59,105 nt of DNA from a virus (Duplodnaviria; Caudoviricetes): the IMG/VR virus record IMGVR_UViG_3300009169_000025, positions 1-59,105 of that record, one strand, 5' to 3'. Under the pieces are notes generated by a model, which was given only the letters and a program-made list of their open reading frames with translations, was not told the origin of the DNA and did not search any database. Positions 1-59,105 of the stretch are shown piece after piece; positions within the stretch are counted from its first letter, which is position 1; each line of letters begins with the position of its first letter. A program made the position numbers and the translations under genes.

Positions 1-13
1 AGCATTAGGGCAC

Positions 14-919
14 ATGAAAATGGCTACTCTTTCAGAGGAAGCCATTGCTTTTTTAGAAGTAAAAAACTACCAAGCTGCTTTGCCAAATGGATTACACTAT
101 ATAATTCAAGTGGCAAAGAATAATGCTTGGACACCTACTGAAAAAGTTACCTGTACTCCTCAAGCTATTATTACAGAATTAGTTCCGGAAACAGCTCACA
201 CAAATTGTGGATGCTCTACTTGTTGTAGTACACCTGCAAATGATATGGTATTACTTGATTGTCAAGGAGATTTAATAGGTACTCCTGAAGTAGCTTACTA
301 CAGACCTTACTTTGATCTTCAATATGAATATCTTGGTTGGGTTCACTCTAAATCTTTTAGAACTAAATTTACTCCGGTAAGGTTAGCTAATCACACTTTT
401 TTTAATACCTTAGTGTGTCAAAATAAAGACAGTGAAAATCTATACAGCAGTAACAGAAATTCTACTGATGAGTATAGCATAGTTGAAGACCAACTTAGAT
501 TTAGTTTTAAAGAAGGACTTGTAGCTGTGGCATATCTTAGAACTAAGATAGATTTAGCAACAGGTTACCCTATGGTCCCTGATGATGAATCAGCTAAGGC
601 AGCTATTACTTACTACTTAGGTTGGAAAGTAAAAGAAAGAGAAGCTTGGAATCACAGAGAAGGTGCTATGCAAATTGCTCAAGTTGCTGAAGCAAGATGG
701 TTGAAGTACATCAAACAGTTTAGAAACAAAGCTAAGATGCCTTGGGGAACTGATGATTATGAAGACCTTATGGAACAATCAAATTACTTATTACCAAGAA
801 ACAAAAGATATTATGGGTTCTTTGGTAAATTAGGAAAAGCAGAAGATAGGATATTTAATGATCCTAACTTTACAAACAAATACAGATACACATCAGGTAA
901 CTCATCTTACATGAGATAA
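14..919 (+). CDS. Putative tail tubular/ring protein (crAss-like), probably truncated at the 5' end by the window edge
   Basis: Frame is open upstream of the ATG (ALGH-M). C-terminal motif G-x-V-x-V-AY...GYPMVPDD...AITYY and position directly before the stabilization-type gene fit the crAss-like tail module. Confidence 0.55.
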   Translation: MKMATLSEEAIAFLEVKNYQAALPNGLHYIIQVAKNNAWTPTEKVTCTPQAIITELVPETAHTNCGCSTCCSTPANDMVLLDCQGDLIGTPEVAYYRPYFDLQYEYLGWVHSKSFRTKFTPVRLANHTFFNTLVCQNKDSENLYSSNRNSTDEYSIVEDQLRFSFKEGLVAVAYLRTKIDLATGYPMVPDDESAKAAITYYLGWKVKEREAWNHREGAMQIAQVAEARWLKYIKQFRNKAKMPWGTDDYEDLMEQSNYLLPRNKRYYGFFGKLGKAEDRIFNDPNFTNKYRYTSGNSSYMR

Positions 920-921
920 TT

Positions 922-3900
922 ATGGCTAAAAATAACAACTCAGAAGAAAAACAACAAGGAAACCCTCTAGGAAATATTATTATTACTGGAGGGTTAAATA
1001 CAGATGCATCCTTAGTAAGTCAACCTCCAGGCACCACCAGATTTGTGATGACAGGAGTAGATGAAACTAAAGAAGGAGATTTAGGTACTATAACTTCTGA
1101 AGAGTCTAATGGAGAATGTTATGACTTAGCATCTGCAGGACTTGACCTAGGATATGTTCCTATGGGTAAAGTTTATATTGGAAATGAAGATCAACTTATT
1201 TTCTTAGCAAATCCTAATGGAAATTCTGCTATTGTCATACTAGACAAAGAATGTAATCTAGAAGTAAAAGCAACAGATGAAAATCAATTTGAAAAATTTG
1301 GTTTTAAAATCACTCAGCAAATTGATGCAACCTTTAGATTAAGAAGAGGTTGTGAAAGAACTGCATATTGGCTTGACCCTAAACCTAGAATGTTTATTCT
1401 TGATAAAGAAGAAGAGTTTAAAAATGATGATCCTCTTGCTCCTACAAATAGTTCTACTGAACCTAATTTTGGGGATTGGGATATTTCTAAATTCAATTTA
1501 TTCAAAACATATAAAAAGATTCCTGAAGTTACTAATATTGAAGTTCTTGATGGGAGTGGAATACTTCCTCCTGGAAGTTATAATTTTTCTATAAGATACT
1601 TAGATGCTGACTTTAACCCTACAGAGTTTATATTTAGCACTGAGACTGTTATGATTTATAACACTCCTTTGACAGCTAACTATAGAAATCTTGAAGGAGC
1701 AACAAAAGAAGTACAAAACTATTACAACTTTCCAGATAGTAACAAAGCTATCAGAATTAGTATAGACCCGGCTACTCTTGATATTACTTACCCTTTCTAC
1801 CAAATAGCTATCACAGAAGCTAATGCAGGAGGAGGGTTAGTAAGTGATACTAAATTTACTCAAGAAATATCTACAAGACAATCTTTCTTTGTTTATACAG
1901 GAGCAAACTATGAATCTTCAGGAAGTCAAGCTGAAGTAACTATGTTCAATAATATTATTGAAAAAGCTCAAAGTATAGAACAAATTGAGAACAGACTTAT
2001 ATTAGGAGACATTGAAGGAAAGCAAATTAACTACTGTAACCTTCAAAAGTATGCTAGTAGAATTACTGCAGATGTAGTTACTAAAGATATATTTGTGTCT
2101 GTAAATGACTTAGGTAATTCTAAAGATCCTTCAGCACATTTTCATGGTATAGGTTACATGCCAGGAGAGATATACTCTTTTGGTATTGTATTTATATTTG
2201 AAGACAATTCTCTTTCTCCTACATTCCATATACCAGGTAAAAGTCCTATGTCAGGAGTACAGGATATGTACAGTACTGGCACCAATGTTTATCCTATGAC
2301 TAACATTGATAACAGTTGTCAAAGCACTAAGTATATTGACAATAATACTTGTGGAGAAGATACTTTTTGGGGAAAAGATTATAATGGAGACCCTTTAACT
2401 AATAAAGTTGTTAGACATCATAGATTCCCTTTAAGAACAGATTACAACATTCCTTTTGTAGAAAAAGTTGATGAAACTGAAATAAACTCTTTTGTAAAAG
2501 CAATAACTATTACAGCTCAAAAAATAGGAGCTGACATTCCTTTATTGTGTCCTGCTGATGACCCAGGTTGTCCTGGAGAACAAAATGCAGATTTTGGAGA
2601 CCCTGTAAATTTTGGACCTTTTGAAATAAAACTAGAGTACACAGAAGATGCTGCTACTAATTTCTATTCTGAAGTTATTGACCCTTTCTTATATCAAGGA
2701 GATGCAGGAGACCCTACAACTAGTACTGATGTAGAGTTTAATTTTAATACAGGAAATATCTATGCTACAGTAGTTACAATTCCTATTTTAACTGGGTTAA
2801 ATGAAGTTTTTGAATCTTCTACAAATATTGTAATTCTTGTTTTAGGAACTAATGCTATAACAGGTCTCCCTCAATACACAGGGACTTCAGGAATAACTGG
2901 GTTGACTTATACTATTGATGTAGGACAAAGTGCTGCAGGTGCTGGTGTAGATTTATACAAAGCTCCTGTTTTTGGTATTAGATTCTCTAATATTAATATA
3001 CCTAATGAAGTAGATACTGCTGGGCAAAAGATAATAGGATATTATATAGTTAGGAATGAGAGAAAAGAATCAGACAAAACTGTATTAGACAGTGCTGTAT
3101 TACTACCTACTACTAAAGAAAAAAACTTTGCAGCTCAAGGTTTAATTTTTCCTCAGTATGATTCTACAGCTACAGAAGATGCAAGAGTTAAAAAAGATGT
3201 ACTAGGATTTATTTCTCCGGAACATAAATTTAACAATACTCAATATGCAATCTTTAGTAAAATAGTTCAACAAGGAGACTTTAAAAAGATTGATGTTATT
3301 AAGAGTAGAGTTAAAATTAATGATACTGCAGATGGTTCTGGTTATGTTTCAGGTAAACATAAAAGTGGAGAATCTGATCCTGATGGATTTACAACTCACA
3401 TTAAAACTAGAGATAATATCACAGAGTTTAGACCAAAAAATACTTTCACTTATACTACTGTAGATATTAAAGAGGTATTCTATTTAAGTGCTTTAGAAGA
3501 CAGACTTATTGAAGATAGTTCTGATAATCCTTATGATGTATTTAACTTAGCTTGTGATAATAAAATTGGTCTTTTTAGTTTAGAGCAACAATACACTGAA
3601 TTTAATTGTCTTTCTGCTTTACCTTATGTGTATTTGTTTAGAGACAGTTTAGAACCTTACTCTAATTTTAGATTAGAACCTTATTATAAAGAAAGTAGAA
3701 ATCCTGAAAAGTTTGATCTTATTACAGGGATAAGTACTTGTGATATATTTAATGGGGATGTTTACATCAACTCTATGAGATATGTAAATAGTATTTATTA
3801 TGACACAAGAATCAAAAAAAGAAAAGGTAAAACTAATGCTTTTGGTTTTATACTTGGTGCCATACTTGTACTTGTAGCAGTAGCTTTAGTAATATTTAGT

Positions 3901-6900
3901 TTTGGAGCTGCTACTCCATTAGCTGCAGGACTCCTTGTAGCAGGAGCAGGATTAGCTGCAGGAGTAGCTACTACTTTAATTCTATCAGGTATTAAACAAG
4001 ATGCTTGGAATAAAGCATATAACATTCTTTACAAGCAAGGTCTTAGAACAACTATTACTGATGAATACTTGTTGAATGATATTGACCCTAATAACAATGT
4101 ACCTGTACTAAATCCTTTTACAGGTAACCTTTGGTTTAACAAAGGAGATAGAGGTAATAAAAAAAATCCTTCTGATGATGAACAACAATGGTTAGGAGAA
4201 TGTGTTAATCTTTGGTTTGAGTCTGCTATTAATATGGGATTAAGAAATAGTTTTAATGATGCCACTCCTGCTTATTTAAAAGCACCAGGACTTATTGAAC
4301 AAGGCACTACTTACCCAGAATGGAACAGAGAATACTTTGGTATTATGTCAGTAGGTTCAGGAGGTAAAGATATTGATGGAGGAGCTAGAGAAGAGGATGT
4401 GGCTCCTACTACTGCTTTAGATTTCCACATGACAGAGAAACTTACTTACTTAGATGCAGCTAGAAAAAGTGGAAGAAAAGGATATGGTATTGCTTTAGCT
4501 GAGGCCTACCTTTTAAACCCGGATTACAAAAGAAGAAACCAACAAAAGATATTCAATCATCTTGGATTAGAGTATGACTGTTGTACAGACTGTGTTGAAA
4601 CTTTTCCTCATAGATGGCACTGGTCAGAGCAAGCTTTTCAAGAAGAACTTACTGATAACTTTAGAATGTTTTTACCTAACAACTACAAAGATCTTGAAGC
4701 TGAGACAGGTAGAATAACTGATATTTATAGAGTTCAGAATAATCTTTATATCCATACTGAAGAAGGTCTTTGGCATTGTCCTCAAACTTTTCAAGAAAGA
4801 ATTACTAGTGATATAGTTTCTTTTATTGGAACAGGAGAATACTTCTCTGTACCTCCTAGAAAGATGGTAGATGATAATAACTCTTCTGCAGGAAATAGAC
4901 ATAAGTGGGCAAGAACTAAAACCAAATATGGAGTTCTTTTCCCTTCTTGGAAAGAGAAAAAATGGTACTTGTTTAATGGAGAGAGTTTACAAGCTATTAG
5001 TGATAATGGTAATTCTAACTATTTTAAAAACAATATGAATTTCTTGTTAGAACAACAGTATTATTCTGCTAATCAAGAGGCATATCCATATTCCAATAAC
5101 CCTTCTAATCCATTAGGAGTAGGGTTCTCATCTACCTATGATACTAATAAAGAGAGATTGATTATAACTAAAAAAGATAACCAAATCTATAATCTTCCTA
5201 GTCAGCCTTATCAGTTATGTTCAGAGGGGCCACAGACTATTATCTTTAATAACATGGCTCAAATCATAGCTGATAGAGAAGCAAATGGTTGGAGTTATGT
5301 AGGTATTGAAGATTGTCAAATGAAGTTTATAAAAGTAGTAGAAGAGACTTCTACTATTACTGTGAATCAATTTACAGAGATTCCTAATGACATAGACATT
5401 TATGTTTTCTATGATACATCAGGTTCTTTTGGCTACACTAAAGGAGGAACAGGAACTGCTACTGAAGAAGAAGTTCTTACTTGGGGAGATTACTTCCCTT
5501 TAATAGATGCTAGTTTAATGGATTGGATAACTAATGATTTACAACCTTCAGGATGGGTAGGTCAAGTTTATAGATACTATAACAATGATGAAAGATGGTT
5601 ACAGTTTCCTGATAAAATACCTTTGGCTAATAGAGGTAAAGTAATACTTATTTCATTAACTAATGAAAGTAATACAGTATATCATGGTGATGATATTAAT
5701 TTTACAGGACAACCTAGTGCAGCATATCAAAATGACTACATTGATTTTACTGAACCAGGAGGAGTTTACTCTACTTACAATCAGTTTATAGGGATAAACT
5801 ATCCTATCTGTACTAATTGGGGAGATGGGTCTGAACCTAAAACTTTTGTACTACATGCTTTAGCTGCTGTAAAAGGAACTAACTATTCTTTAGCAGATGT
5901 AAATGATTTACCTGTTAATCTATTCTTTTCTACTGCACAGTGGACTAGTTTAAAGTCTCAATTACAAACAAATCCTTATTCTACTTTACTAGACCCTAAT
6001 GGAGATCCAGGATTAGAACAATGGGGATGGTTTGTGAAAGCTGACAGAAGTGTATTAGGCAATCCTACTAATGGAGATTGTCCAGCAACTAATGTCCCTG
6101 GTTCAGAACAGATTATTTCTCCTTGTCAGTTTGCTTTAGACATGAATGAAATTCTTGCTTCTTTGATAGTAACAGAAGAAGTAGAAAGTACAGTAGTCAA
6201 TCCGGTAACTTATGTTGAGTATGAGCAAGGACAAGTTTTTGTTCCTCAATATATAAGAGCAGGGTGGACAATGAGTTATGGACTAAAAAGACAAGAGTGG
6301 AGAAGTTGGCATCCTTATATTCCTTCTTTCTACTTTCATGTTCAAGAGAAGTTCTACTCATGGCCACAAGGGTCTAGATACTTATGGAAACATAATAGAC
6401 AAGGACACTATAGAACTTTCTATGGAGTTACCTATCCATTTATTGTTGAGTATGTAGATAACCCTTCTCCTATAACAACTAAAGTGTGGGATTACTTAAT
6501 GTTTCAAACTGAAGCAAAACAATTTGATCCTACTACTCAAGATTATATGGACATTAAAGAAGTGACTTTTAACAAGGTTCTTTTTTATAACTCAGAACAA
6601 ATCAGTGGAGTTTTAAATATCAATCCTAAACAGGATTTATCTCAGACTTATTTATTGCAACAAACTCAGAACTTTAATAACTTTGGTAGTATTACTGCAG
6701 ATAGAAATGAAAGAGATTGGACCTTAAATCACATGAGAGATGTTAGGATGAATACTTCTGTTCCTATGTTTATAAAAGATGTAGCACAGTTACAATCTAA
6801 CTATTACATAGACAAAATAGTAAACCCGGCAGCAATTAGTTCTTTTAAGAGTTGGGATGAATTAGAAAGTTTCAGAGATAAGTTCTTGGTGGTCAGATTA

Positions 6901-6978
6901 ATTTTTGATACTTTTGATACCAGTAAAAGATTAACTTTCCATTATTCTTACTTACAGAAAGAAATGTCAGAAAGATAA
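922..6978 (+). CDS. Tail stabilization/muzzle protein (P22 gp10-like) with inserted hydrophobic hairpin and vWA-like segment
   Basis: 2018 aa, beta-rich. N-terminal GGLNTD, NNYKDL...GRITDI, and C-terminal WTMSY...WRSWH and FRDKFLVVRLIFD resemble crAss-like stabilization proteins; gene order agrees. Confidence 0.65.
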   Translation: MAKNNNSEEKQQGNPLGNIIITGGLNTDASLVSQPPGTTRFVMTGVDETKEGDLGTITSEESNGECYDLASAGLDLGYVPMGKVYIGNEDQLIFLANPNGNSAIVILDKECNLEVKATDENQFEKFGFKITQQIDATFRLRRGCERTAYWLDPKPRMFILDKEEEFKNDDPLAPTNSSTEPNFGDWDISKFNLFKTYKKIPEVTNIEVLDGSGILPPGSYNFSIRYLDADFNPTEFIFSTETVMIYNTPLTANYRNLEGATKEVQNYYNFPDSNKAIRISIDPATLDITYPFYQIAITEANAGGGLVSDTKFTQEISTRQSFFVYTGANYESSGSQAEVTMFNNIIEKAQSIEQIENRLILGDIEGKQINYCNLQKYASRITADVVTKDIFVSVNDLGNSKDPSAHFHGIGYMPGEIYSFGIVFIFEDNSLSPTFHIPGKSPMSGVQDMYSTGTNVYPMTNIDNSCQSTKYIDNNTCGEDTFWGKDYNGDPLTNKVVRHHRFPLRTDYNIPFVEKVDETEINSFVKAITITAQKIGADIPLLCPADDPGCPGEQNADFGDPVNFGPFEIKLEYTEDAATNFYSEVIDPFLYQGDAGDPTTSTDVEFNFNTGNIYATVVTIPILTGLNEVFESSTNIVILVLGTNAITGLPQYTGTSGITGLTYTIDVGQSAAGAGVDLYKAPVFGIRFSNINIPNEVDTAGQKIIGYYIVRNERKESDKTVLDSAVLLPTTKEKNFAAQGLIFPQYDSTATEDARVKKDVLGFISPEHKFNNTQYAIFSKIVQQGDFKKIDVIKSRVKINDTADGSGYVSGKHKSGESDPDGFTTHIKTRDNITEFRPKNTFTYTTVDIKEVFYLSALEDRLIEDSSDNPYDVFNLACDNKIGLFSLEQQYTEFNCLSALPYVYLFRDSLEPYSNFRLEPYYKESRNPEKFDLITGISTCDIFNGDVYINSMRYVNSIYYDTRIKKRKGKTNAFGFILGAILVLVAVALVIFSFGAATPLAAGLLVAGAGLAAGVATTLILSGIKQDAWNKAYNILYKQGLRTTITDEYLLNDIDPNNNVPVLNPFTGNLWFNKGDRGNKKNPSDDEQQWLGECVNLWFESAINMGLRNSFNDATPAYLKAPGLIEQGTTYPEWNREYFGIMSVGSGGKDIDGGAREEDVAPTTALDFHMTEKLTYLDAARKSGRKGYGIALAEAYLLNPDYKRRNQQKIFNHLGLEYDCCTDCVETFPHRWHWSEQAFQEELTDNFRMFLPNNYKDLEAETGRITDIYRVQNNLYIHTEEGLWHCPQTFQERITSDIVSFIGTGEYFSVPPRKMVDDNNSSAGNRHKWARTKTKYGVLFPSWKEKKWYLFNGESLQAISDNGNSNYFKNNMNFLLEQQYYSANQEAYPYSNNPSNPLGVGFSSTYDTNKERLIITKKDNQIYNLPSQPYQLCSEGPQTIIFNNMAQIIADREANGWSYVGIEDCQMKFIKVVEETSTITVNQFTEIPNDIDIYVFYDTSGSFGYTKGGTGTATEEEVLTWGDYFPLIDASLMDWITNDLQPSGWVGQVYRYYNNDERWLQFPDKIPLANRGKVILISLTNESNTVYHGDDINFTGQPSAAYQNDYIDFTEPGGVYSTYNQFIGINYPICTNWGDGSEPKTFVLHALAAVKGTNYSLADVNDLPVNLFFSTAQWTSLKSQLQTNPYSTLLDPNGDPGLEQWGWFVKADRSVLGNPTNGDCPATNVPGSEQIISPCQFALDMNEILASLIVTEEVESTVVNPVTYVEYEQGQVFVPQYIRAGWTMSYGLKRQEWRSWHPYIPSFYFHVQEKFYSWPQGSRYLWKHNRQGHYRTFYGVTYPFIVEYVDNPSPITTKVWDYLMFQTEAKQFDPTTQDYMDIKEVTFNKVLFYNSEQISGVLNINPKQDLSQTYLLQQTQNFNNFGSITADRNERDWTLNHMRDVRMNTSVPMFIKDVAQLQSNYYIDKIVNPAAISSFKSWDELESFRDKFLVVRLIFDTFDTSKRLTFHYSYLQKEMSER

Positions 6979-7005
6979 GCTTAACCTTTAATAATTTAAA
7001 GCAAG

Positions 7006-10371: not shown

Positions 10372-10373
10372 TT

Positions 10374-48813: not shown

Positions 48814-49504
48814 TTTTATTAACTACATAACCTAAGTCATTAGGAATAAACTGCTTATCAAACATTCCAATAGGAGATTTGGCTGATGAATACATTTCAT
48901 TCTCATTAGTCAAGAACTCTTTAACAGCTTTCTTGTCAGTAGCATCATATCTACTAATACCAATAAGAGTAACATCAACTTTACCCTCTACAGTTAAGTA
49001 CTCATCTACCATCTTACCTGTAGATTTGTACTTCATATAGATTCTACCATCAGGACCTGGAACACTGTCACCATGAGCTAAGATGATTACATTTTTACCT
49101 GCAGCATCTAGTTTTTCTATGGCATCAAATATTCTACCCATCATAAAACCAATTTGCTTAGGAGCATCCCAACCCTTAGCCAAAGCATTAGCCATGTACC
49201 AATTCTGCATTACATAGTTGCTATCATCCCACACAATATTCTTGTGAGGAGTAGACACTAATGCTAAAAAGATTTCAGCTATTGCTTTTGCATCATCAGT
49301 AATAACTCTTCTGCCTGATTTTATGTCTCCAGGTGCACATATTGGATATGCAGCACCACTTCCTTTGAATGGAAGAGGCTTAGAAGTTACTGAGATAAGG
49401 AAAGTCTCTTCAGGCTTTAATCCTATGATACCTAATTCAGGTATCTGTCCTATACTGGTGGACTTACCAAAGCCACTAGGGGCAAGCACTAAAATTTTAG
49501 CCAT
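48794..49504 (-). CDS. AAA-family ATPase (AAA_24/Sak4-like)
   Basis: Walker A APSGFGKS, Walker B IVWDD, ILAH, GKMVD and AKSPIGMF. Confidence 0.85.
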   Translation of the reverse strand: MAKILVLAPSGFGKSTSIGQIPELGIIGLKPEETFLISVTSKPLPFKGSGAAYPICAPGDIKSGRRVITDDAKAIAEIFLALVSTPHKNIVWDDSNYVMQNWYMANALAKGWDAPKQIGFMMGRIFDAIEKLDAAGKNVIILAHGDSVPGPDGRIYMKYKSTGKMVDEYLTVEGKVDVTLIGISRYDATDKKAVKEFLTNENEMYSSAKSPIGMFDKQFIPNDLGYVVNKIAEYYG

Positions 49505-49511
49505 TTTTGTT

Positions 49512-50774: not shown

Positions 50775-51319
50775 TATTGCATTCTTGAAGTTATATCCTC
50801 AGTGTTGTTAGAAGAGGTATCAGAGATTGCTTCTCTGTACTTCTCTACCCAACCCAATAAGGATGAAGTTCTGTCTCTACCAACTCCTTTACTAATAAAG
50901 TAATGAGAGCTGATAAGGTATTCAGCACTACTTAAAGTTTTAAAATATAAACTAGTAGCTTCAATTACCTCCTCTTTTCTAACATCAGGATTGTCAGCAA
51001 AGAATGCTTTCATTCTTGTAATGACATCCTTATCCGGAGCTTTTCTTTTGTTGTTTATTCTCTTAAATTCAGCATTCCATTCTATAACCCAATGCCATTT
51101 ATCATGGATTTCTTCCTCAACAAATAAAGGAATGTGCCATACAACTTCTCTTGTATTACTAATACCCAAGATGTTAGTCACATTCATTCTTTGTACTAGG
51201 AGTGGTGGTGTATAAGAAGGTCTACAATTAAAGAATATAGACAAAAGATAAGCTACACCATCAGCTACAGGAATATTAAACTGCTGTAGAACTGATGTAA
51301 TTTGGGGATTTATCTTCAT
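50774..51319 (-). CDS. Hypothetical replication-associated protein
   Basis: 181-aa ORF translationally coupled to the DnaB-like gene. Confidence 0.6.
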   Translation of the reverse strand: MKINPQITSVLQQFNIPVADGVAYLLSIFFNCRPSYTPPLLVQRMNVTNILGISNTREVVWHIPLFVEEEIHDKWHWVIEWNAEFKRINNKRKAPDKDVITRMKAFFADNPDVRKEEVIEATSLYFKTLSSAEYLISSHYFISKGVGRDRTSSLLGWVEKYREAISDTSSNNTEDITSRMQ

Positions 51320-51522
51320 GTTTTTTCTTTTTTTAAAGATTGTACAAATTCAGTAATTTCTTTTACTTCTTCAAGTTTGAAACTCTGATTAAAGGTCTGC
51401 AAGATCATAACTCTATCCACAGTGCATATAGCACTGGGATTAGTTATATCTTTTACATCTTCCTTAGCAACTTGCTTGATTTTTCCTTTGCCAAGATACT
51501 TGTAGAAAGCTATTATACTCAT
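51316..51522 (-). CDS. Hypothetical protein
   Basis: 68 aa with ATGA coupling at both ends. Confidence 0.6.
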   Translation of the reverse strand: MSIIAFYKYLGKGKIKQVAKEDVKDITNPSAICTVDRVMILQTFNQSFKLEEVKEITEFVQSLKKEKT

Positions 51523-51791
51523 AACACTTCAAAATAATGCCAAACATAAGGGCCTTGTTGAACAGAGCCTACATAAATATGTTCAGTTTTTGTTGAATCA
51601 AATTTTTGACCTGTTGCTATTTTTCTAATTACTCTTTGCTCTATCTCAACTTCTGAAGGATTTATCTGTATCCAAAAATAGATGATGTTGTTTTGAACTT
51701 GAGTAGTTAAGATTTTAGCTCCAATAGGTAATTGTAAAATAGTAGTATCTGAGCCTACCCTTTCTTCATATTTGTAAATTACATTTTTCAT
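51519..51791 (-). CDS. Conserved small phage protein
   Basis: IYKY...LPIGAKIL..Q.Q...W...TG...YVGSVQ...VWH pattern common in phage hypothetical proteins. Confidence 0.7.
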   Translation of the reverse strand: MKNVIYKYEERVGSDTTILQLPIGAKILTTQVQNNIIYFWIQINPSEVEIEQRVIRKIATGQKFDSTKTEHIYVGSVQQGPYVWHYFEVL

Positions 51792-53086
51792 ACAAATCTT
51801 TTTTTAAAGTTAGGAAATCTTATATAGTTGATCTTAGATTGATTCAAGTTTTCAACAGCATTCTCAAGCCATTTTTCATCTTGAGTGCCTTCAGAAACTA
51901 TGATATACAAGTGAGCTTCATGCCCAGGTCTAAACCTGATAAGTCTACCAATTCTTTGAACCAAGTCTTTCTCTTTAGAGTTAAGCTGACCAATAACACC
52001 TGAATCAACTCCAGGAAAATTGTGGCCTTCATTGACTGCTTTCACACAAGATAATCTATTGATACTCTCATTTTTGAAAGCATCATAAGCTACACTACTA
52101 GACTTAGAGTGATAATAAGTGGGACAAACTTGTTCAGCTTGTTCTATATTACCACAAAAGATAATAGTTCTATCTTCTTTAGGAATTACTTTGTCAAGTA
52201 AAAACTTGATTACTTGAGTCTTAGAAGGAATCTTGTAGATAAACTGCATTCTACCTAAGATAGCAAACTTCATCTTAGCTTTACCTTGAGGAGTTGTGTC
52301 CCCAAAACATTGCTGAACTCTCTTATTCCAATAAGCATAACATGCTGCTTCAGTAGTCATAAAAGGTTTAATTTTAGTTCCACCTGGAATATTCTTAGTC
52401 ACAGCATCTAAAGGCACTGTAATAACAGTAATCTTGTATGGTGCCACAAAGCCAAGTCTTACAGCTTGGTCCAAAGTAAGTTCATAGACAAGCTTAATGT
52501 CTAAGTCAGAAAGGATTTGTTTCTTAACTATATCAGTAGGAGGAGTGGCAGTAAGTAATACTGTTCTCTCTACATTGTTATTCAGAAAGAATTCTGAAGA
52601 TAACTCTGTAATATTATGGCCTTCATCAAGAATAGCTAATGGGAAATCATAACCTTTGACTTTAGATGCAGAAGCATAACAAAGTCTTTCAGTGTGTTTC
52701 CACACATTACTAGCTTCCCATTTAGTAAATTCTTCTAGCCAATTCTCATCTCTCAACTTTTCAGTTGGTACAAGAAGAGCTGCATGATAGTCATTACTTG
52801 GATTAAAGTAGTATTTAGCTAGTTCTACTGCTACTCTAGACTTACCTGAACCTGTAGCCATAGCTATCATTCCACCATTGTTATTCACAACAGCTTGTAT
52901 GGCTTCATTCTGGACCTTCTCTCTGACTTTATTTACAAAAGTTTCTACAGCTAAGGATTCCATTGTTTCATCCTCTGCAGCCTCTGTAATCTTCTTTCTT
53001 AGAGCTTCTATTTTGTCAATATAAGTTAAAATTGACTTTGGTTGGTTTTGAAAGAGTTCCTCCAACTCTCTGAAATACTTTCTCAT
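51788..53086 (-). CDS. Superfamily 2 (DExH) helicase
   Basis: ATGSGKS, LVPT, LDEGH, LTATP, NEGHN and QRIGRLIR motifs. Confidence 0.92.
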   Translation of the reverse strand: MRKYFRELEELFQNQPKSILTYIDKIEALRKKITEAAEDETMESLAVETFVNKVREKVQNEAIQAVVNNNGGMIAMATGSGKSRVAVELAKYYFNPSNDYHAALLVPTEKLRDENWLEEFTKWEASNVWKHTERLCYASASKVKGYDFPLAILDEGHNITELSSEFFLNNNVERTVLLTATPPTDIVKKQILSDLDIKLVYELTLDQAVRLGFVAPYKITVITVPLDAVTKNIPGGTKIKPFMTTEAACYAYWNKRVQQCFGDTTPQGKAKMKFAILGRMQFIYKIPSKTQVIKFLLDKVIPKEDRTIIFCGNIEQAEQVCPTYYHSKSSSVAYDAFKNESINRLSCVKAVNEGHNFPGVDSGVIGQLNSKEKDLVQRIGRLIRFRPGHEAHLYIIVSEGTQDEKWLENAVENLNQSKINYIRFPNFKKRFV

Positions 53087-53328
53087 GATAAATACGGTGT
53101 GTTATATCCTATTGCAAGGATAATTGATTTAAGTTCTTGGGTTACTCCTTTTTCTCTAAACTCTTTTGCAAGTCTTATGAATAGTGGGTGTTTCTCATCT
53201 CTGATAACAACAATAGGATAAGCTGCCATTTCAAGACAATCTTCCAATATTATTTCATCACTGATTTCTTCAAATACTGCAACAGGGATATGTAAAAAGA
53301 ATTGGAAGAAATCTGTGTATCTTATCAT
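53083..53328 (-). CDS. Hypothetical protein
   Basis: 81-aa coupled ORF. Confidence 0.55.
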   Translation of the reverse strand: MIRYTDFFQFFLHIPVAVFEEISDEIILEDCLEMAAYPIVVIRDEKHPLFIRLAKEFREKGVTQELKSIILAIGYNTPYLS

Positions 53329-53329
53329 A

Positions 53330-53686
53330 TTACTCTATTTTTACCAGATTAATTTTCCAATAAACAGAAGGAGCAGAGTAGATTAGCATAAACTCTTTCT
53401 TGTTTTTATTCTTTCCTACTGTTAGAAATCTAACTTGTTTATTGTTTTTATCTGTACAGTAATAGACCATATAATCTTCTCCAAAAGGTTTTACTTTATA
53501 TACTGTAAAACCTATAATTACATTGTTTTCAGCAATAGCAATTTCATGGTTATTCAGTACTACAACTCCTCTAGTTGGAATTATTTCCCATGAGTCAGCT
53601 AATCTTATCTGTTTCTTATCAAAACTGTAGACTTGGCTAAAACAATGGGTACTGAAGACTAATAATAATAATATTATTTTTTTCAT
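53330..53686 (-). CDS. Secreted beta-rich protein with Sec signal peptide
   Basis: MKKIILLLLVFSTHCFS/Q is a Bacteroidota-type SPase I signal followed by Gln. Confidence 0.65.
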   Translation of the reverse strand: MKKIILLLLVFSTHCFSQVYSFDKKQIRLADSWEIIPTRGVVVLNNHEIAIAENNVIIGFTVYKVKPFGEDYMVYYCTDKNNKQVRFLTVGKNKNKKEFMLIYSAPSVYWKINLVKIE

Positions 53687-53689
53687 AAT

Positions 53690-55585
53690 TTAATGTGCTT
53701 CTGCATAGTTTTTACCAATATCAATACTAATTCCTAATGGTACATTAAGACACAGTGTTTGATTAGTGAGTTCTATGGCTTTGTTAAGTTTTTCTTTTAT
53801 TGATTCTTGGTCTTCTTTTAAGAAACCAAATCCAATCTCATCATGATACTGCAAGCTTATCTTAATGCCTTGTTTTCTCACATTTCTAATGTGAGTATCA
53901 AAGCAGAAAACTCCTGTACCTTGATTGAGAGTACTGAATCTATCTTTTGGTTGTCTTAATGAATACCAAAATCCACTGACAGGGTTGTATAGCCACATTT
54001 GCCCTCTAACCTCTTTGTAAACAGTGTCATTGACAACTTGTTTTACAGACTTATTTCTTTCCCAGTAAATCTTATGTAGCAATGAAGCATCTTCTAATGA
54101 CATACCTGTAGTTAAGGCAATCTTAGGTGGGCCTGCTCCATAAATACCTGAAAAGTTTACCACTTTAGCCTTGCTTCTAACTTTCTTGTAAGATGTACCT
54201 TGTTCTCCTTTTGTGGCTTCAAAAAGCTTATGCTCATTGACCTGTTCAGGTGTAAGCATACCTGATAGTACAGCAATATCAAGATGAGGGTCAAACCCTG
54301 GCACTCTCATTTGTGTTACATAATCAGGATCATAAAAATACATGTAGTGTTGTTTAGTAGTATCTTCCAATGAAGACATATCACTACCACAAAAGAGATG
54401 GTTATCATCAGGTGCTATGATAGCTCCTCTGATTTCTTTACCATAAGGTTTATCTACACCAGGTAGATTAGCAACAGGCTTTTTATGTTTAAATCTAAGA
54501 GTATTGGTAAACCCAGCTATCTGAGCTTGCATTTTACCTTGCTCATTAGAGCATTCTAGAAATCCATTTAGAACACCAACTCTATGTTGAAGCATAAATA
54601 ATCCCTTTAGATTTTCAAGAACAGGGTGTGTTTCAGCTAGCACTATAATGTTAGGGCATAGCTTCTTATCCTTATCTTGTATCTGAGGTATTGCTCTAGT
54701 ACTATCCCTTTCTTTTACATAGTTGAATACTGTAGGTCTCCAGCCTAAGCTGAATAACCAAGACTTTAACTGTGTAGTTGAGGTAGGATTGGGTTCTTCT
54801 GTGGATTTAAGTATAGAAATTTCTCCTTCAAAGTCTGCTTCTAAATCATTATCAGCTAGAAGTTCTAACCAAGCTATGCCGGCCTTGGTCAATTCCTCTT
54901 TAACTGTGTACATTTTAGAAGGTTTCTTCTTAGAGGTATATTTCTCTACTTTGGGCATTGCAACTGCAAGATTAGCTTTCCTTTCATCTACAAGAGTATG
55001 AAGACTAGCCAATGTTTCTTTACAATATGCCCTGTCAATACTTAGTGGATTTGCTTCTTGTTCTGCAGCACAATCTAATTTCCAAGTTAGATAGGCCATA
55101 AGTCTATGATAATCCTCACTCTGATATATTTCTTTCAAATAATTGATGAAATTACCAAGAATGATACTATTAATCACAACATCTGTTCTACATCTATTGA
55201 TGTAATCTTCAGTGTCTAGGTTTTCCCAATCTGTGATTACTGGTTTAGATACTCCAACTCTCTCTCCCCATACTTCTAAGCCATGTTCTGCTTCATTTGG
55301 GTATAAATACCAAGACAAAGCTAAAGTGTCTATTACTTGGCCTGTATGTTTGTAACCTGTAAGCTTTTCAATAGCAGGGAAATCATATCTCTTGACATTA
55401 TGACCTACAAGTAAAGCTTGACCACTTAAGAAATTAGCCAATTCCCAAGGATTTGTAATAACAGTTTCCCCTAGTAATTGGTTGTCTTCATAAGTGTGAG
55501 CTACAAGGCAGTGAAGTCTAGTAAGTTGTTGAAGTAAACCATCAGTTTCTATATCAAATATGGTGTATCTCATTTCTTTTTCCAT
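53690..55585 (-). CDS. polA: DNA polymerase family A (T7-like, 3'-5' exonuclease plus polymerase)
   Basis: FDIETDG, GHN...YD, motif A GSDMSSLE, motif B RSKAKVVNFSGIYG, motif C YHDEI. Confidence 0.95.
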   Translation of the reverse strand: MEKEMRYTIFDIETDGLLQQLTRLHCLVAHTYEDNQLLGETVITNPWELANFLSGQALLVGHNVKRYDFPAIEKLTGYKHTGQVIDTLALSWYLYPNEAEHGLEVWGERVGVSKPVITDWENLDTEDYINRCRTDVVINSIILGNFINYLKEIYQSEDYHRLMAYLTWKLDCAAEQEANPLSIDRAYCKETLASLHTLVDERKANLAVAMPKVEKYTSKKKPSKMYTVKEELTKAGIAWLELLADNDLEADFEGEISILKSTEEPNPTSTTQLKSWLFSLGWRPTVFNYVKERDSTRAIPQIQDKDKKLCPNIIVLAETHPVLENLKGLFMLQHRVGVLNGFLECSNEQGKMQAQIAGFTNTLRFKHKKPVANLPGVDKPYGKEIRGAIIAPDDNHLFCGSDMSSLEDTTKQHYMYFYDPDYVTQMRVPGFDPHLDIAVLSGMLTPEQVNEHKLFEATKGEQGTSYKKVRSKAKVVNFSGIYGAGPPKIALTTGMSLEDASLLHKIYWERNKSVKQVVNDTVYKEVRGQMWLYNPVSGFWYSLRQPKDRFSTLNQGTGVFCFDTHIRNVRKQGIKISLQYHDEIGFGFLKEDQESIKEKLNKAIELTNQTLCLNVPLGISIDIGKNYAEAH

Positions 55586-55788
55586 TTAAAGATTAGCAAT
55601 GTAGCTAATATGAGAATAATAAGAGGTTCTAAAATTACAAAGAGATAAATATTCAATTCTTCATAAGTACAACCTAATTTATCAGCATAGAATTGAATGC
55701 AGTCACAACACCAATTAAAGAAACCATTCATAGAATGTTGACTTATTAAATCAGAGTATAACTCTGATGAAGAATTAAAATGTTTCAT
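55570..55788 (-). CDS. Small membrane protein
   Basis: 72 aa with a C-terminal TM helix and basic tail. Confidence 0.6.
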   Translation of the reverse strand: MKHFNSSSELYSDLISQHSMNGFFNWCCDCIQFYADKLGCTYEELNIYLFVILEPLIILILATLLIFKWKKK

Positions 55789-55790
55789 AA

Positions 55791-56192
55791 TTAAAAATTA
55801 AATAGATTTCTTTCTTCCATTTCTTTTAAGGCTTTCTCTGCCATAGGCTTAATTAAATAAGCACCTAGCACTTCTAAAGCTCTTTCTCTTCTCTCATCTA
55901 CAGTGAGTATGTATTCATTAACTAAAGCTCTTTCTACTCTCTCTTGCATAACAAATAATTTGTTAGTGGCATCTTTAGCAGATTGACCATCAACAGCATC
56001 CTGAACTTGAAAAACTTTTACAATAAATTCTTCAAATTTAGTTTTGCCATTTTTTAAGAAAGATTTGATAGAGCCATAAAGATACCCTTGTGTTTCTAAG
56101 AACTCAATTTTCTCAATAATAAGCTGTAATAGCACTACAAATTGAAGGTTGTGATCTTGCTCTTTCTTTTTAAGTTCTTCTTTAGTTAACAT
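55791..56192 (-). CDS. Hypothetical helical protein
   Basis: 133-aa ORF within the operon. Confidence 0.65.
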   Translation of the reverse strand: MLTKEELKKKEQDHNLQFVVLLQLIIEKIEFLETQGYLYGSIKSFLKNGKTKFEEFIVKVFQVQDAVDGQSAKDATNKLFVMQERVERALVNEYILTVDERRERALEVLGAYLIKPMAEKALKEMEERNLFNF

Positions 56193-56475
56193 AGTCTATT
56201 TGATTGATAAACAGGTTATTGTAAGTTCTCCCATGTTTCTCAGAACCAATGAAAACAAAACCAATATTGATTTCATCTCCTTTTCTAATTCCTATCTTTT
56301 CAATTCTAGCTATTACAGCATCTCTAACTTCAAAGAAAGCTTTTTGTTCATCTTCAGTAGTTACTGTGACAATAGCTCTTTTTTTAGTTGGTTTACCTTC
56401 TACTATAATAAGCTCAGGTTTTGACATTCCTTCAAAATACCCTACAAAAGGGGTTAAATTCTTCTTTGCACTCAT
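56182..56475 (-). CDS. DUF3127-like OB-fold (SSB-like) protein
   Basis: KKR..V..T...FE...GDEINIGF...GSE..G.TYN.L pattern; start reassigned to MSAKK, downstream of the promoter element. Confidence 0.7.
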   Translation of the reverse strand: MSAKKNLTPFVGYFEGMSKPELIIVEGKPTKKRAIVTVTTEDEQKAFFEVRDAVIARIEKIGIRKGDEINIGFVFIGSEKHGRTYNNLFINQIDYVN

Positions 56476-56513
56476 GGCTAAATAAATAAGGGTTAATAAA
56501 AAATTAAGGGTTA

Positions 56514-56521
56514 CAAATATA
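56514..56521 (-). promoter_or_regulatory. Candidate -7 promoter element (TATATTTG) for the replication operon
   Basis: TAnnTTTG just downstream of a terminator and about 40 nt upstream of ATG 56475. Confidence 0.6.
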
Positions 56522-56539
56522 GGCATACCCTAAGCAAAT

Positions 56540-56573
56540 AAAAAAAGAGAGTGAGGAAAAATCCGCACTCTCT
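56540..56573 (-). terminator. Intrinsic terminator
   Basis: Stem AGAGAGTG (56546-56553) / CACTCTCT (56566-56573) plus inner GGA/TCC, followed by a T run on the - strand. Confidence 0.85.
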
Positions 56574-56583
56574 CAACTTTTAA

Positions 56584-57225
56584 TTACATGGCATCTTGGC
56601 CTGCAGGAATACTTCCAGCAACACCTACCATTTCTACTTTAATAGCAGCAGAAGCATAATAATCAGCATGATCTGAAGTTCTTAAATCAGAATCTTCAGT
56701 AGCAGTATTCTTAAAGAATGTTGCTTTGTACTGAACTTTCCCATTAGGGTCTAAAATCAAGCTACCTGCTTGTGGATGACCTACTGGGTATCTTACTACT
56801 TGTTTGTCTGCAATAGCATCCATTGTAGTCAAACCTGCAGTAATTGCATAGTTTTGACTATCAGTAGTGATTGGTCTGTTTGCTAATACCTTACAGATAG
56901 TAGCAGTTGGAACCAAGGCTAACTTAGCAGCAACAGTTTCTGAGGTAGAACCTACAGGAACATCAACCCAAGCTACTCTTTTCTCTTCAGAAGTAAATTC
57001 TTGTTCTGAAAATCCAAATTCAGCATTACTGAAAGGGTTGTCTTGCATGTTGTTGCTTACAGACTTTGATGGGTAATAACTCTTAGTAGTTACAGTCTGT
57101 TTGATTTCTGCTGTAAGAGTTCCCTCTTTTTGATAAGCAGTTGCATGTACTCTAGAAATTTCTAAAGAACCTTTGCTCATTTCTTTTCTTACTCTGTTTT
57201 CTGTGTTTGAAACTTGTGTATTCAT
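56584..57225 (-). CDS. Hypothetical protein, 213 aa (start MNTQVSN), probably highly expressed
   Basis: AT-rich leader before ATG 57225 and its own terminator; the longer ORF call runs into a structured non-coding region. Confidence 0.75.
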   Translation of the reverse strand: MNTQVSNTENRVRKEMSKGSLEISRVHATAYQKEGTLTAEIKQTVTTKSYYPSKSVSNNMQDNPFSNAEFGFSEQEFTSEEKRVAWVDVPVGSTSETVAAKLALVPTATICKVLANRPITTDSQNYAITAGLTTMDAIADKQVVRYPVGHPQAGSLILDPNGKVQYKATFFKNTATEDSDLRTSDHADYYASAAIKVEMVGVAGSIPAGQDAM

Positions 57226-57493
57226 AATGTGTTTTATTGTTCTACATACTTTATAGGAAGGCAATAACCTATTCCATACATAGAGATTTGATTTAATTTT
57301 TAGTTTTGCCTTTTTAGTTAAAAAACTATTCAACTTGTACCTCAGATTCCCCGCAGGGCTTTGAACCTCTGAATAGCCCAAACTACAAATACTACAATCT
57401 ATCCGCACTAGATCATACTATGTTCAGAGGTATAAATACCACACATAGTTTTGATACAATAGATATAAGAAACCATGTTGATTAGGTTTGTAG

Positions 57494-57926
57494 TGGAGAT
57501 GGTGGGAGTTGAACCCACGTTACCTGGACATCTCAAAATAAAGATTTATTACAGCTTTTGTGAATTCTTTTTCTGATTTTAATTTAGGGAGTAGTCAAAA
57601 ACAACCCTGAATACTTTTGTTTTAATTCTTTAAGTTAGAATAGGGCCAACTGTAAACAGCAAGCCTCCACCATTCAGTTTTATCCCAAACTGACAAAAGG
57701 GAGTATTAACTTCAACCTAAGTTATGGTCCTAATCTTTGGCTTAGGCAGCCACAGCTAACTCTACCTCTTCTGAAGTAGAAATCAAGTTGTGAACAACTT
57801 GCATATTAGCTTGTATTTGAGCATTCTCTGAAATGTTGCCATTTATTGAAATTTCACCTTAGTTTACAGTTATCTCTCTGGCTGAATCTTTAAATCTACT
57901 ATGGCAGGTCAAAACCCGGCATCCCC
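57494..57926 (-). ncRNA. ssrA: tmRNA
   Basis: 5' GGGGATG pairs with 3' CATCTCC-A including the G3-U alanine identity pair; 5' GGGTTTTGAC; T-arm GTGGG-TTCAACT-CCCAC; internal tag ORF 57840-57742 ending LAVAA-stop; CCA not encoded (CTA follows). Confidence 0.93.
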
Positions 57927-58070
57927 TTATATGCTTGTCTTTCCAAGCTGTCAACTTTCTTATAAACCCTTAATGTGCACACCACAAGAAACTGGGAAAG
58001 TGTTGTTTCTACATTACAAAGCTTCTCTGCTAGCTTGACTTACAGTCTGCAGCGGTCCACTTATATCAAA

Positions 58071-58212
58071 AAGTCTTAATCTTGTTTATACTCTACTCAG
58101 GACATCAGTTTAGAAGGCTGAGCCAATTCAGAGACCAGGAATAGTTACTAACCGGATAAAATTTATAACTAATGGATAGCTTCCTGAAGCTTCTCTATCC
58201 TGATTAAGACTT
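58071..58212 (-). ncRNA. Candidate structured ncRNA (multi-branched, 142 nt); strand inferred from flanking genes
   Basis: 11-bp perfect closing stem AAGTCTTAATC / GATTAAGACTT enclosing three hairpins. Confidence 0.5.
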
Positions 58213-58222
58213 AAAAGGTAAA

Positions 58223-58309
58223 ACAATTCATATCCGGCTTTATAGCTAAGAATGGTAGAACTTAGCATCACATAGTCGGTTTTATTGGCTATTGGCTTCA
58301 ATGAATTGT
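58223..58309 (-). ncRNA. Candidate structured ncRNA (87 nt); strand inferred
   Basis: 9-bp closing stem ACAATTCAT / ATGAATTGT with nested CCGGCT/AGTCGG and GCTAAG/CTTAGC stems. Confidence 0.45.
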
Positions 58310-58538
58310 CTGTGGGAATAATGAACAGGGTCCTATCAAGCTAGTGTTGGCTAACAAGAAGAAAAGTTAAAAGCTTACCCTACTAAACTCTAGGTTTTTT
58401 TTCATAGGCTACCAACACTCTATAGATACTTTAAGAAGACTTTTCTTGTAAGGCTTATTCATTATATATTATTGTTGGATAATAAGAGAAGGAAAAGGAT
58501 GCTCAATAAGAGTCTAACTCCTTTCCTAATCTCATTGT

Positions 58539-58546
58539 CAAATTTA
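58539..58546 (-). promoter_or_regulatory. Candidate -7 element (TAAATTTG) that could drive the ncRNA/tmRNA region
   Basis: TAnnTTTG at the head of the 1.3-kb non-coding block. Confidence 0.4.
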
Positions 58547-58559
58547 ATCCAACCTAAAT

Positions 58560-58820
58560 TTAATTTATAGCCATTCTAGATTTAAGAGTATTGGTGTTCT
58601 CTTGTAATATGGCATATTCTTTTTCTATCTTTCTCATGTCTTGTTCTCTCATTCTAGAAAGACTTTGACCTATAGAAAGAATGATCTGATTTTGTTGTTC
58701 AGTAGTAAAATCTCTTCTTAAAAGATATACTACTTTATCTACATAGTCTTCCTGTATTTCAGGTTCAGGAGACATAACTGCAGATATTCTTGATCTTAAT
58801 GATTGTAAAAACTTCTTCAT
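58560..58820 (-). CDS. Hypothetical helical protein
   Basis: 86-aa ORF with an AT-rich leader. Confidence 0.65.
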   Translation of the reverse strand: MKKFLQSLRSRISAVMSPEPEIQEDYVDKVVYLLRRDFTTEQQNQIILSIGQSLSRMREQDMRKIEKEYAILQENTNTLKSRMAIN

Positions 58821-58851
58821 GATAAATTCTTTTGATTAGGGATTAGTGATT

Positions 58852-58878
58852 AAAAAATTAAGGGTATTTCTACCCTTA
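58852..58878 (-). terminator. Intrinsic terminator
   Basis: Stem TAAGGGTA (58859-58866) / TACCCTTA (58871-58878) followed by TTTTT on the - strand. Confidence 0.65.
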
Positions 58879-59070
58879 ATATTCTTTCTTTTTAAAACCT
58901 ACAGCTTCTATGCTTAAAACTCTAGGATTAATACCAGCTACATATTTTACAGCCATAACTAATCTCTTAGCAAGGATGTTTCTATGAGGGTTTGATGAAG
59001 CCTCTAATGTAGCCATTTTAAAGTGTGTTCTTTTCTGTGCCATTGTAGTAATTGGATTAAAAATAGACAT
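58876..59070 (-). CDS. Small basic hypothetical protein
   Basis: 64-aa ORF flanked by a TAATTTTG element (59084-59091) and a terminator. Confidence 0.55.
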   Translation of the reverse strand: MSIFNPITTMAQKRTHFKMATLEASSNPHRNILAKRLVMAVKYVAGINPRVLSIEAVGFKKKEY

Positions 59071-59105
59071 ATAACTTACTTGTCAAAATTAGTGAGGGTT
59101 TTCCT

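Follow-up and report, generated by a model that had tools for sequence, protein, structure and literature searches.

Gene layout and CG content of the window

The sequence analyzed here, IMG/VR record IMGVR_UViG_3300009169_000025, is a stretch of 59105 nt with 34.1% G+C (hereafter the window). It is part of the genome of a freshwater crAss-like phage of the FpV4 lineage, and its completeness is estimated at 63%. The subject of this study is the dinucleotide CG, which has nearly vanished from the window except within the tetranucleotide CCGG. A giant virion-protein block is followed by an opposed replication block, and the main features are as follows.

14..32329, + strand: virion-protein block; six genes, four of them longer than 1000 aa, homologous to FpV4 gp28-gp33
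32367..59070, - strand: replication and early-gene block; ligase, MazG, RecE-like exonuclease, ThiF-family protein, primase, DnaB-like helicase, superfamily 2 (SF2) helicase, family A DNA polymerase
57491..57926, - strand: transfer-messenger RNA (tmRNA) gene, predicted by ARAGORN and matching Rfam RF00023 (60.2 bits versus a gathering score of 47)

The window belongs with the crAss-like phages by its muzzle protein (Crassvirus muzzle domain PF25731 on the open reading frame (ORF) 922-6978, E 8.8e-30), its tail ring protein (PF24228 on the ORF 14-919, E 6.5e-44), and a gene order common with cultured crAss-like phages. Among isolates, it is closest to FpV4, Fpv1-3, and FPSV, phages of Flavobacterium psychrophilum with genomes of ~90 kb. 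By tblastn, 26 of the 48 called ORFs match FpV4, colinear over 23-83 kb, with 27 to 66% identity. Genes for the crAss-type major capsid protein, portal, and terminase are outside the 59-kb window. The International Committee on Taxonomy of Viruses (ICTV) line of the FpV4 record gives the genus Fipvunavirus and no order.

The window contains 46 CG dinucleotides against 1714.5 expected from base composition, that is, an observed/expected ratio (O/E) of 0.027, and 32 of the 46 lie within CCGG. An earlier note on this sequence had arrived at the same 46 and 32 by eye, against an expectation of well over a thousand; it listed each CCGG by the position of its initial C (185, 374, and so on), one base ahead of the CG. 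Its statement that CCGG is near chance level also holds, since the 32 copies compare with 49.7 by base composition (O/E 0.64) and with 29.0 under a second-order Markov model (1.11). The remaining 15 NCGN contexts contain 14 CG in total, 0 to 3 each, versus 48 to 198 expected for each. Thus 15 of the 16 contexts have an O/E of at most 0.063, all 12 non-palindromic ones among them; for instance, ACGA occurs once (198 expected), and TCGT and CCGA are absent (175 and 97 expected, respectively). The chance of finding at least 32 of 46 CG in CCGG is P = 1e-38. On the sense strand there is no asymmetry between an NCGN context and its reverse complement.

The reversed dinucleotide and CG-free restriction targets are kept. 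GC (1869 copies, O/E 1.09) and GGCC (48 versus 49.7) are not depleted, as the earlier note had remarked, and CTAG (203 versus 186 expected) and AGCT (454 versus 186) are retained in the window. AGCT is 2.1 to 2.9 times over-represented in the window and in four near-complete relatives described below, and CTGCAG is 5.9 to 7.8 times over-represented in the same five genomes (40 versus 5.4 in the window). Both excesses are probably by-products of the preferred codons GCT, GCA, and CAG.

The few CG are unevenly placed. Before the first exception, the ACGC at 26820, each of the 17 CG is part of a CCGG. The virion-protein block as a whole has 22 CCGG and no other CG than that at 26820 (non-CCGG CG O/E 0.0011). 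From 32367 to the end of the window there are 10 CCGG and 13 other CG, with a coding non-CCGG CG O/E of 0.007 to 0.019. Among the 14 exceptions to CCGG, nine are the half-sites CCGH or DCGG (P = 0.007 for at least 9 of 14) and six fall within 56564-58277, each of these figures being as given in the earlier note. The last six belong to the following stretch.

56527..58559, no strand: densest CG stretch, with 9 of the 46 CG and 6 of the 14 exceptions

Two intergenic segments make it up, together with the 5' part of the ORF 56584-57408 and the tmRNA gene; the latter holds two CG, at 57518 (ACGT) and 57917 (CCGG). Homology of the ORF to FpV4 begins only at residue 52, its 5' part being without homology.

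Codon usage was considered as a cause, because arginine is encoded almost exclusively by AGR (665 AGR and 4 CGN, together 669 among 18750 codons, in intact reading frames) and NCG codons are nearly absent (TCG 0, ACG 1, GCG 1, and CCG 19, of which 18 precede G). The depletion is nevertheless present at all codon positions, and at codon junctions (C|G) there are 14 CG versus 642 expected from the frequencies of C-ending and G-starting codons. In 300 within-gene synonymous shuffles, which keep each protein and each gene's already CG-poor codon usage, the coding sequences contained 566 ± 16.5 CG (minimum 509) versus 39 in the window, and 20.2 CCGG (maximum 32) versus 29. Protein content and codon usage of the phage thus leave a ~15-fold loss of CG unexplained. 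Intergenic non-RNA DNA is depleted too: in the window and the four relatives pooled it has 85 CG versus 540 expected (O/E 0.157, compared with 0.049 in coding DNA). That dozens of independent assemblies, and cultured isolates as well, share the pattern speaks against a sequencing or assembly artefact. An origin in codon or amino-acid usage, or in such an artefact, can be practically dismissed, in agreement with the earlier note, which had argued against arginine codon bias: no other NCGN context is as frequent as CCGG, and codon usage does not suffice.

Inheritance of the CG loss in a branch of crAss-like phages

Four near-complete relatives (G001-G004, the window being G000), two of them rated 100% complete, were read whole; over the full available length their CG O/E is 0.117, 0.057, 0.035, and 0.032, respectively. 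Among 51 IMG/VR loci found with the polymerase, the ratio is 0.012 to 0.14 wherever identity is at least 70%. A crAss-type helicase profile yielded 80 loci: 49 at 72% identity or more have a median O/E of 0.035 (0 to 0.132), and 31 at 44 to 55% identity have a median of 0.125 (0.012 to 1.26). Named phages gave the following CG O/E values.

FpV4, Flavobacterium phage, whole genome: 0.065 (106 CG versus ~1630 expected)
crAss001, Steigviridae, 30-50 kb read: 0.036
DAC15, Steigviridae, 30-50 kb read: 0.030
IAS virus, Steigviridae, 30-50 kb read: 0.13
cr85_1, Steigviridae, 30-50 kb read: 0.14
cr128_1, Steigviridae, 30-50 kb read: 0.28
phi14:2, Steigviridae, 30-50 kb read: 0.49
cr125_1, cr10_1, and cr109_1, Suoliviridae, 45 kb each: 0.54, 0.62, and 0.50

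It follows from the named phages that the extreme state characterizes a large branch of the crAss-like phages and not the whole order. The depletion is inherited across this branch, whose members have differing DNA polymerases and hosts. The pattern that the earlier note had described as this phage's own is therefore a trait of the branch, and what is particular to the small clade of the window is the recent exemption of CCGG. We found no description of CpG loss in crAss-like phages in the literature; supplements, possibly with per-phage values, were outside the search.

Unrelated phages of the same host genera do not have this property. The F. psychrophilum phages 6H (temperate) and Fpv5 (lytic) have a CG O/E of 0.96 and 1.56, the Bacteroides fragilis phages B40-8 and B124-14 have 1.19 and 1.20, and the Cellulophaga phage phi38:1 has 0.75. 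Since all five non-crAss phages, from three host genera, are undepleted, the loss of CG is not host mimicry, and the host-wide CpG-directed defence proposed in the earlier note becomes less likely. B40-8 encodes two annotated methyltransferases. Fpv5 (L074, KU599880) has a reverse bias, with CG at 1.56, CT at 0.32, AG at 0.49, and TA at 0.48, and among longer words it has CTAG 0 of 122 expected, CATG 1 of 122, CGCG 0 of 27, and AGCT 20 of 122.

Several simple correlates were tried and rejected. The loss of CG does not follow G+C content (Spearman -0.13). Neither expression level nor early or late position explains it, the strand blocks being alike in G001-G004 and only genes longer than 1000 aa differing. 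The type of DNA polymerase is not the cause either, as FpV4 is equally depleted though the polymerase of the window is unmatched there: a tblastn search with the family A enzyme (53690-55585, - strand) at E 1e-5 finds nothing in FpV4, which carries another annotated polymerase (gp62) in the same place. The best named matches of the window's enzyme are in the Pseudomonas PA11-like phages (45% identity). These comparisons fit a polymerase replacement within the crAss-like phages.

A loss without selection would require CG to be hypermutable, e.g., by methylation and deamination, with CCGG rescued by site-specific repair. HpaII-type systems can indeed carry a Vsr-like repair gene, and several depleted genomes have a TG/CA O/E that slightly exceeds 1 (1.07 for the window, 1.16 to 1.22 for FpV4, crAss001, and DAC15). 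However, the surplus of TG+CA, ~465, is far below the ~1670 missing CG, so there is no deamination footprint, and the check suggested in the earlier note thus revealed no surplus matching the deficit; the larger surplus of CT+AG (~2780) arises because AGR and NCT codons are used. At the CG sites of the window the relatives show CT, CA, TG, and AG alike, and no CpG methyltransferase was found in the phages. An O/E of 0.001 over 32 kb of giant genes would need roughly thousandfold hypermutability, and the depletion extends across differing DNA polymerases. Finally, residual CG is conserved: of ten aligned non-CCGG sites, six keep CG in G002, the closest full-length relative. Mutational decay is therefore very improbable. 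Because non-CCGG CG is mostly conserved, the remainder outside CCGG looks constrained, and one site stands out:

48161..48166 (CG at 48163), no strand: TCCGTA, the sole non-CCGG CG kept in all four full-length relatives

This hexanucleotide is probably held by functional constraint, judging from the alignment. Taken together, the context counts, shuffles, and phage comparisons demonstrate strong, context-free, and strand-symmetric selection against CG in this phage lineage, independent of polymerase type and host composition. The earlier note had likewise concluded that selection against CpG is strong and that CCGG is the sole spared context, which the NCGN counts and shuffles bear out for the window.

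The CCGG exemption and other lost words

In the polymerase tree, the window and the loci L001, L002, and L003 form a supported clade (98/90), all with CCGG, and the nearest loci outside the clade, L004 and L005, have none. Elsewhere in this tree CCGG is found in L016 (41 of 78 CG), L006, L010/L025, and L018. Among whole genomes, CCGG makes up 187 of 286 CG in G001, 24 of 117 in G002, 0 of 85 in G003, and 0 of 84 in G004, and crAss001 retains 7 CCGG in 33 kb. Of the aligned CCGG sites of the window, 4 of 16 are common to G002 and 0 of 17 to G004.

33800..33803, 40510, 51034, and 57916, no strand: the four CCGG sites present also in G002, by alignment

The other 12 read CCTG, CCAG, CTGG, or CAGG in G002, which are synonymous third-position differences. 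With so few sites shared with relatives, the CCGG sites of the window are young. In the window CCG accounts for 18 of 246 proline codons preceding G, and NCC for 11 of 266 Ser/Pro/Thr/Ala codons preceding glycine, shares approximately equal to those that codon usage gives where CG is unpenalised.

The window has lost several further words, the expectations for which were taken from G003 and G004.

CAATTG: 0 in the window, 20 expected
CAGCTG: 0 in the window, 18 expected
GAGCTC: 0 in the window, 6 expected
GATATC: 1 in the window, 14 expected
AGCCC/GGGCT (asymmetric): 7 in the window, 37 expected

Most of these words are lost in G002 as well, and in the window GGATCC is absent (5 expected) and GATC has an O/E of 0.40 by base composition. 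On the evidence of the tree and the alignments, the CCGG exemption is recent, confined to a small clade, and arrived together with the new palindrome avoidances. The latter suggest a shift to hosts with another restriction-modification (R-M) repertoire.

In G001 (94.7 kb, the record behind L016) the non-palindromic tetramer CCAG/CTGG is reduced to 29 copies versus 332 expected from relatives, CCWGG to 3, and GGWCC to 5. Alongside this avoidance of CCWGG, CCGG is threefold over-represented (187 copies), seemingly as a substitute in Pro-Gly and Ser-Gly codon pairs. GATC is wholly absent from FpV4 (0 versus 216 expected), crAss001, IAS virus, and cr85_1.

Ordinary Type II site avoidance, in which one word of 4-8 bp is lost, describes CAATTG, CAGCTG, GAGCTC, and GATATC, and does not describe CG. 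It may be asked whether CG loss has no single agent and is the sum of the avoidance of many CG-containing R-M specificities, on the premise that no self-complementary dinucleotide other than CG can be purged while all proteins stay unchanged. The genomes lack a phage methyltransferase and have many clade-specific lost palindromes; in G003 and G004 the palindromic CG contexts are lost beyond the baseline (CCGG 0, GCGC 0, and TCGA 2 in each); and the unrelated Fpv5 exhibits another dinucleotide-level bias, all of which agrees with such an origin. So does the account in PMC11837570 of F. psychrophilum strains with 9 to 15 R-M systems, their specificities including CCGG, CCNGG, GCSGC, and CGCG. 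The non-palindromic contexts ACGA, TCGT, and CCGA are, however, equally depleted, the contexts fall together also in moderately depleted relatives, and the CG-free targets GGCC, CTAG, and AGCT are kept. As non-palindromic CG contexts are equally empty and CG-free targets are retained, the loss of CG is categorical and not a sum of site avoidances, which makes a purely cumulative origin improbable.

The shielding of CCGG by an HpaII/MspI-like methyltransferase, as proposed in the earlier note, was examined from two sides. A phage enzyme was rejected as the shield: methyltransferases of the families PF00145, PF01555, PF02086, and PF05869 have no matches in the window, in line with the earlier note, or in G001-G004, and in four more distant relatives the sole match is one sub-threshold PF01555 hit in G008 (in G005, PF00145 alone was searched). 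For a host enzyme there is a single counter-example. The host strain of FpV4 is described in PMC11837570 as having an HpaII-like R-M system; FpV4 has no CCGG (30 expected) and keeps 58 CCWGG, so that HpaII-type methylation is not visibly shielding there.

Two further candidates were tried and rejected. An agent reading CGH on either strand, and so sparing CCGG only, is not general: the depletion of half-sites is 3 to 5 times weaker than that of DCGH in the window and G001, but about equal to that of the other contexts in G003 and G004. A screen for genes that the CCGG-bearing G000, G001, and G002 share and that G003 and G004 lack gave one candidate, a 133-aa gene adjoining the polymerase, which then failed on 26 further loci (34 loci examined in all). 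Its form A is also present in the CCGG-free loci L004, L007-L009, L011-L013, and L026, and form B in the CCGG-bearing L001 and L006. This gene (55791-56192, - strand, in the window, with 26 related loci) exists in two forms, 21% identical, in a mosaic among close relatives. Form A occurs in the window, L002, and L003; form B occurs in L001, the polymerase of which is 96% identical to that of the window, and in L006. The mosaic suggests allele exchange by recombination.

Other features of these genomes were noted in passing. The ligase of the window is ATP-dependent. ARAGORN predicts for the tmRNA a 22-residue tag ending in AVAA; tmRNA genes are also found in G003 (16437-16838) and G004 (25565-25969), and one is annotated in the record of the gut crAss-like phage cr10_1. 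No tRNA genes were found by ARAGORN in the window and the four relatives. A four-gene module at 40882-45019 (- strand) encodes the ThiF-family protein (42021-42722) and three proteins without a Pfam family; all but one of the four genes have counterparts in FpV4 or among its annotated genes. The crAss001 record shows a ThiF protein beside a metalloprotease-domain protein in comparable surroundings, with primase on one side and uracil-DNA glycosylase on the other, and in phi14:2 this place holds amidoligase and aminotransferase genes instead. Host assignment by a search of genome contigs returned one contig of a Fusobacteriaceae metagenome-assembled genome (45% identity) and was not informative. 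Words sampled from the window occur in 24 sequencing runs, available as contigs: one, labelled freshwater sediment metagenome, contains 98% of them and may be the source, three contain 20 to 32%, and the small shares in the other twenty are no guide to habitat.

Possible agents of the selection and their significance

Of the overall reading in the earlier note, selection against CG with CCGG spared thus stands, and neither of the causes proposed there has been established. Our own tentative preference, held with considerable doubt, is for selection by a nuclease-type activity that reads bare CG, leaning to a host defence, with CCGG shielded by the host. Natural selection on the nucleic acid itself would have purged CG from phages of the FpV4 lineage, CG being the recognition element of a DNA-targeting activity presumably met in every infection. 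To such a defence, crAss-like phages without their own methyltransferase could respond only by loss of sites, their usual response to restriction, as the palindromes missing from the window and the GATC missing from FpV4 illustrate. If the damage scales with the number of CG, this would explain why more than 97% of CG is lost, why residual CG is mostly conserved and hence probably constrained, and why CG is scarcest in the longest genes. The CCGG exemption would be a separate, recent, and host-dependent event in the clade of the window, CCGG having arisen by synonymous changes at roughly the codon-usage rate, along with the new avoidances of CAATTG, CAGCTG, GAGCTC, and GATATC. Most simply, a CCGG-specific host methyltransferase would hide these sites from the CG-reading activity.

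Several observations weigh against this interpretation. We know of no CG-reading bacterial defence, and the CG-reading agent was not found in this analysis. The 14 to 100 CG left per genome would be targets unless several sites are needed or the activity is weak. Three Suoliviridae are only moderately depleted (0.50 to 0.62), and one relative, L134, in which no modification genes were recognised among 10 ORFs compared with Pfam, has a CG O/E of 1.26. The five non-crAss phages carry 1100 to 2050 CG in 42 to 47 kb, so all five would have to evade a host defence in some other way. The depletion of CG is only weakly associated with GATC loss (Spearman 0.22, p = 0.10, n = 56 phylogenetically non-independent values). 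The absence of CCGG from FpV4, on a host with an HpaII-like system, belongs here as well.

In the opposite arrangement, crAss-like phages would themselves encode a CG-attacking nuclease directed at host DNA, their own CG-free DNA being immune and the absence of CG serving as a self mark. CCGG would be spared either because the enzyme of the clade does not cut it or because host methylation blocks cutting. The trait stays with the phage lineage in two host genera and among environmental relatives and is absent from the five unrelated phages of the same genera, for which no extra assumption is then needed. Host DNA would be a dense target, if the O/E of 0.96 in 6H is taken as a proxy for host composition, and the range of 0.01 to 1.26 among relatives is expected for a weapon that can be lost. 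Yet there is no candidate enzyme. The nucleases recognised are a PD-(D/E)XK protein matching RecE/exonuclease VIII-type recombination nucleases and helicase-linked domains, none identified as CG-specific, many ORFs being without a family; the CG-destroying phage nuclease that the earlier note had offered as its second cause thus has no identified representative. The single candidate of the CCGG-tracking screen failed, the phages' own 46 to 286 residual CG would be cut, and the shift of the CCGG state together with other palindrome avoidances points to the host. Moreover, crAss001 can coexist with its host over time and does not obviously destroy it. We consider such a weapon rather unlikely. 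As to whether the agent is host- or phage-encoded, the lineage-bound distribution favours the phage, and the coupling of CCGG to restriction-type changes favours a host factor.

The target could also be the transcript: CG might be harmful in RNA as an RNase site, or act as a pause or termination site for the unusual phage RNA polymerases, which the crAss-like lineage carries itself. As CG is self-complementary, it would then be lost from both DNA strands. Transcription covers nearly all of these genomes, the depletion of intergenic DNA is 3 to 6 times weaker than that of coding DNA, and in all six of six genomes genes longer than 1000 aa are ~4 times cleaner than the others (non-CCGG CG O/E 0.0107 versus 0.039 to 0.042 in all shorter classes). 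Below 1000 aa, however, there is no gradient of CG loss with gene length. A three-letter RNA reader would spare CCGH or DCGG on the sense strand, whereas both are depleted without asymmetry, and polymerase or RNase chemistry offers no easy account of an exemption that is recent, limited to one clade, and confined to the palindrome CCGG. Nor does high expression seem to accompany a stronger loss, as the presumed major head protein gene of G003 keeps an O/E of 0.21. This 485-aa gene (30664-32121, 10 CG), a candidate by size and place alone, which are those of the FpV4 major head protein gene, is one of the head-region genes with most residual CG, along with 10969-12132 of G002 (7 CG, 0.19). A transcript-level cause has a low probability in our estimate. 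In summary, the transcript-level, cumulative-avoidance, and mutational explanations are less well supported.

For the crAss-like branch that includes the human-gut model phages crAss001 and DAC15, it is quite possible, if short of an even chance, that CpG-lessness acts as a self mark, either through a phage CG nuclease or through a Bacteroidota immunity against bare CpG.

The phenomenon shares with restriction-site avoidance the synonymous removal of short words, a lost set that differs between close lineages, and the lack of a methyltransferase. It differs in that a bare dinucleotide is lost in 15 of 16 contexts and one tetranucleotide is spared; no restriction enzyme with a bare-CG, CCGG-sparing specificity is known to us. 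The CpG suppression of vertebrate RNA and small DNA viruses, linked with ZAP and TLR9, is similar, as generally outlined, in its context-free loss beyond codon usage and in the logic of a self/non-self sensor. In contrast to that outline, the hosts here are bacteria, the depletion is ~10 times deeper (0.03), no matching TpG/CpA surplus exists, and there is a palindromic sanctuary. We are not aware of a CpG sensor in bacteria. Genome-wide discrimination of phage from host DNA is familiar from the self-marking of phages and viruses, such as hydroxymethylcytosine in T4 and the frequent cutters with matching methyltransferases in chlorella viruses; there a base is modified, while here a word is absent and no nuclease has been identified.

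In Mollicutes, CpG is under-represented genome-wide in the presence of the CpG methyltransferases M.MpeI and M.SssI, and the cause proposed for the depleted cell genome, in the account of PMC11282364, is the organism's own methyltransferase with deamination. Unlike Mollicutes, the phage has no methyltransferase that was found and no deamination signature, and the temperate phage of the same host is at 0.96. In general, the CpG content of dsDNA phages resembles that of their hosts (Forni et al. 2024, as cited in PMC11282364), whereas the present crAss-like lineage, with FpV4, crAss001, and DAC15, is at 0.03 to 0.07 versus 0.75 to 1.56 in other phages of the same host genera.

The loss of CpG (O/E 0.03, and 0.001 over 32 kb of giant genes) is well beyond the bacterial depletion described in PMC11282364, as far as that account extends, and among the gut phages concerned are some that rank with the most abundant and best studied. 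A near-total loss of CG without protein change is a clean read-out of a selective force on the nucleic acid that is unnamed in bacteria. It is directly testable in the cultured pairs FpV4/F. psychrophilum, crAss001/B. intestinalis, and DAC15/B. thetaiotaomicron, and the CCGG exemption provides a natural contrast for finding the factor. The lack of CG may also prove useful for recognising such phages and for predicting the defences of their hosts. The phenomenon extends motif avoidance and CpG suppression, and it would be new in kind if the agent is a CG-reading immunity or weapon: either would then be the first self/non-self discrimination by a dinucleotide between phages and bacteria and, in the case of immunity, a counterpart of ZAP and TLR9.

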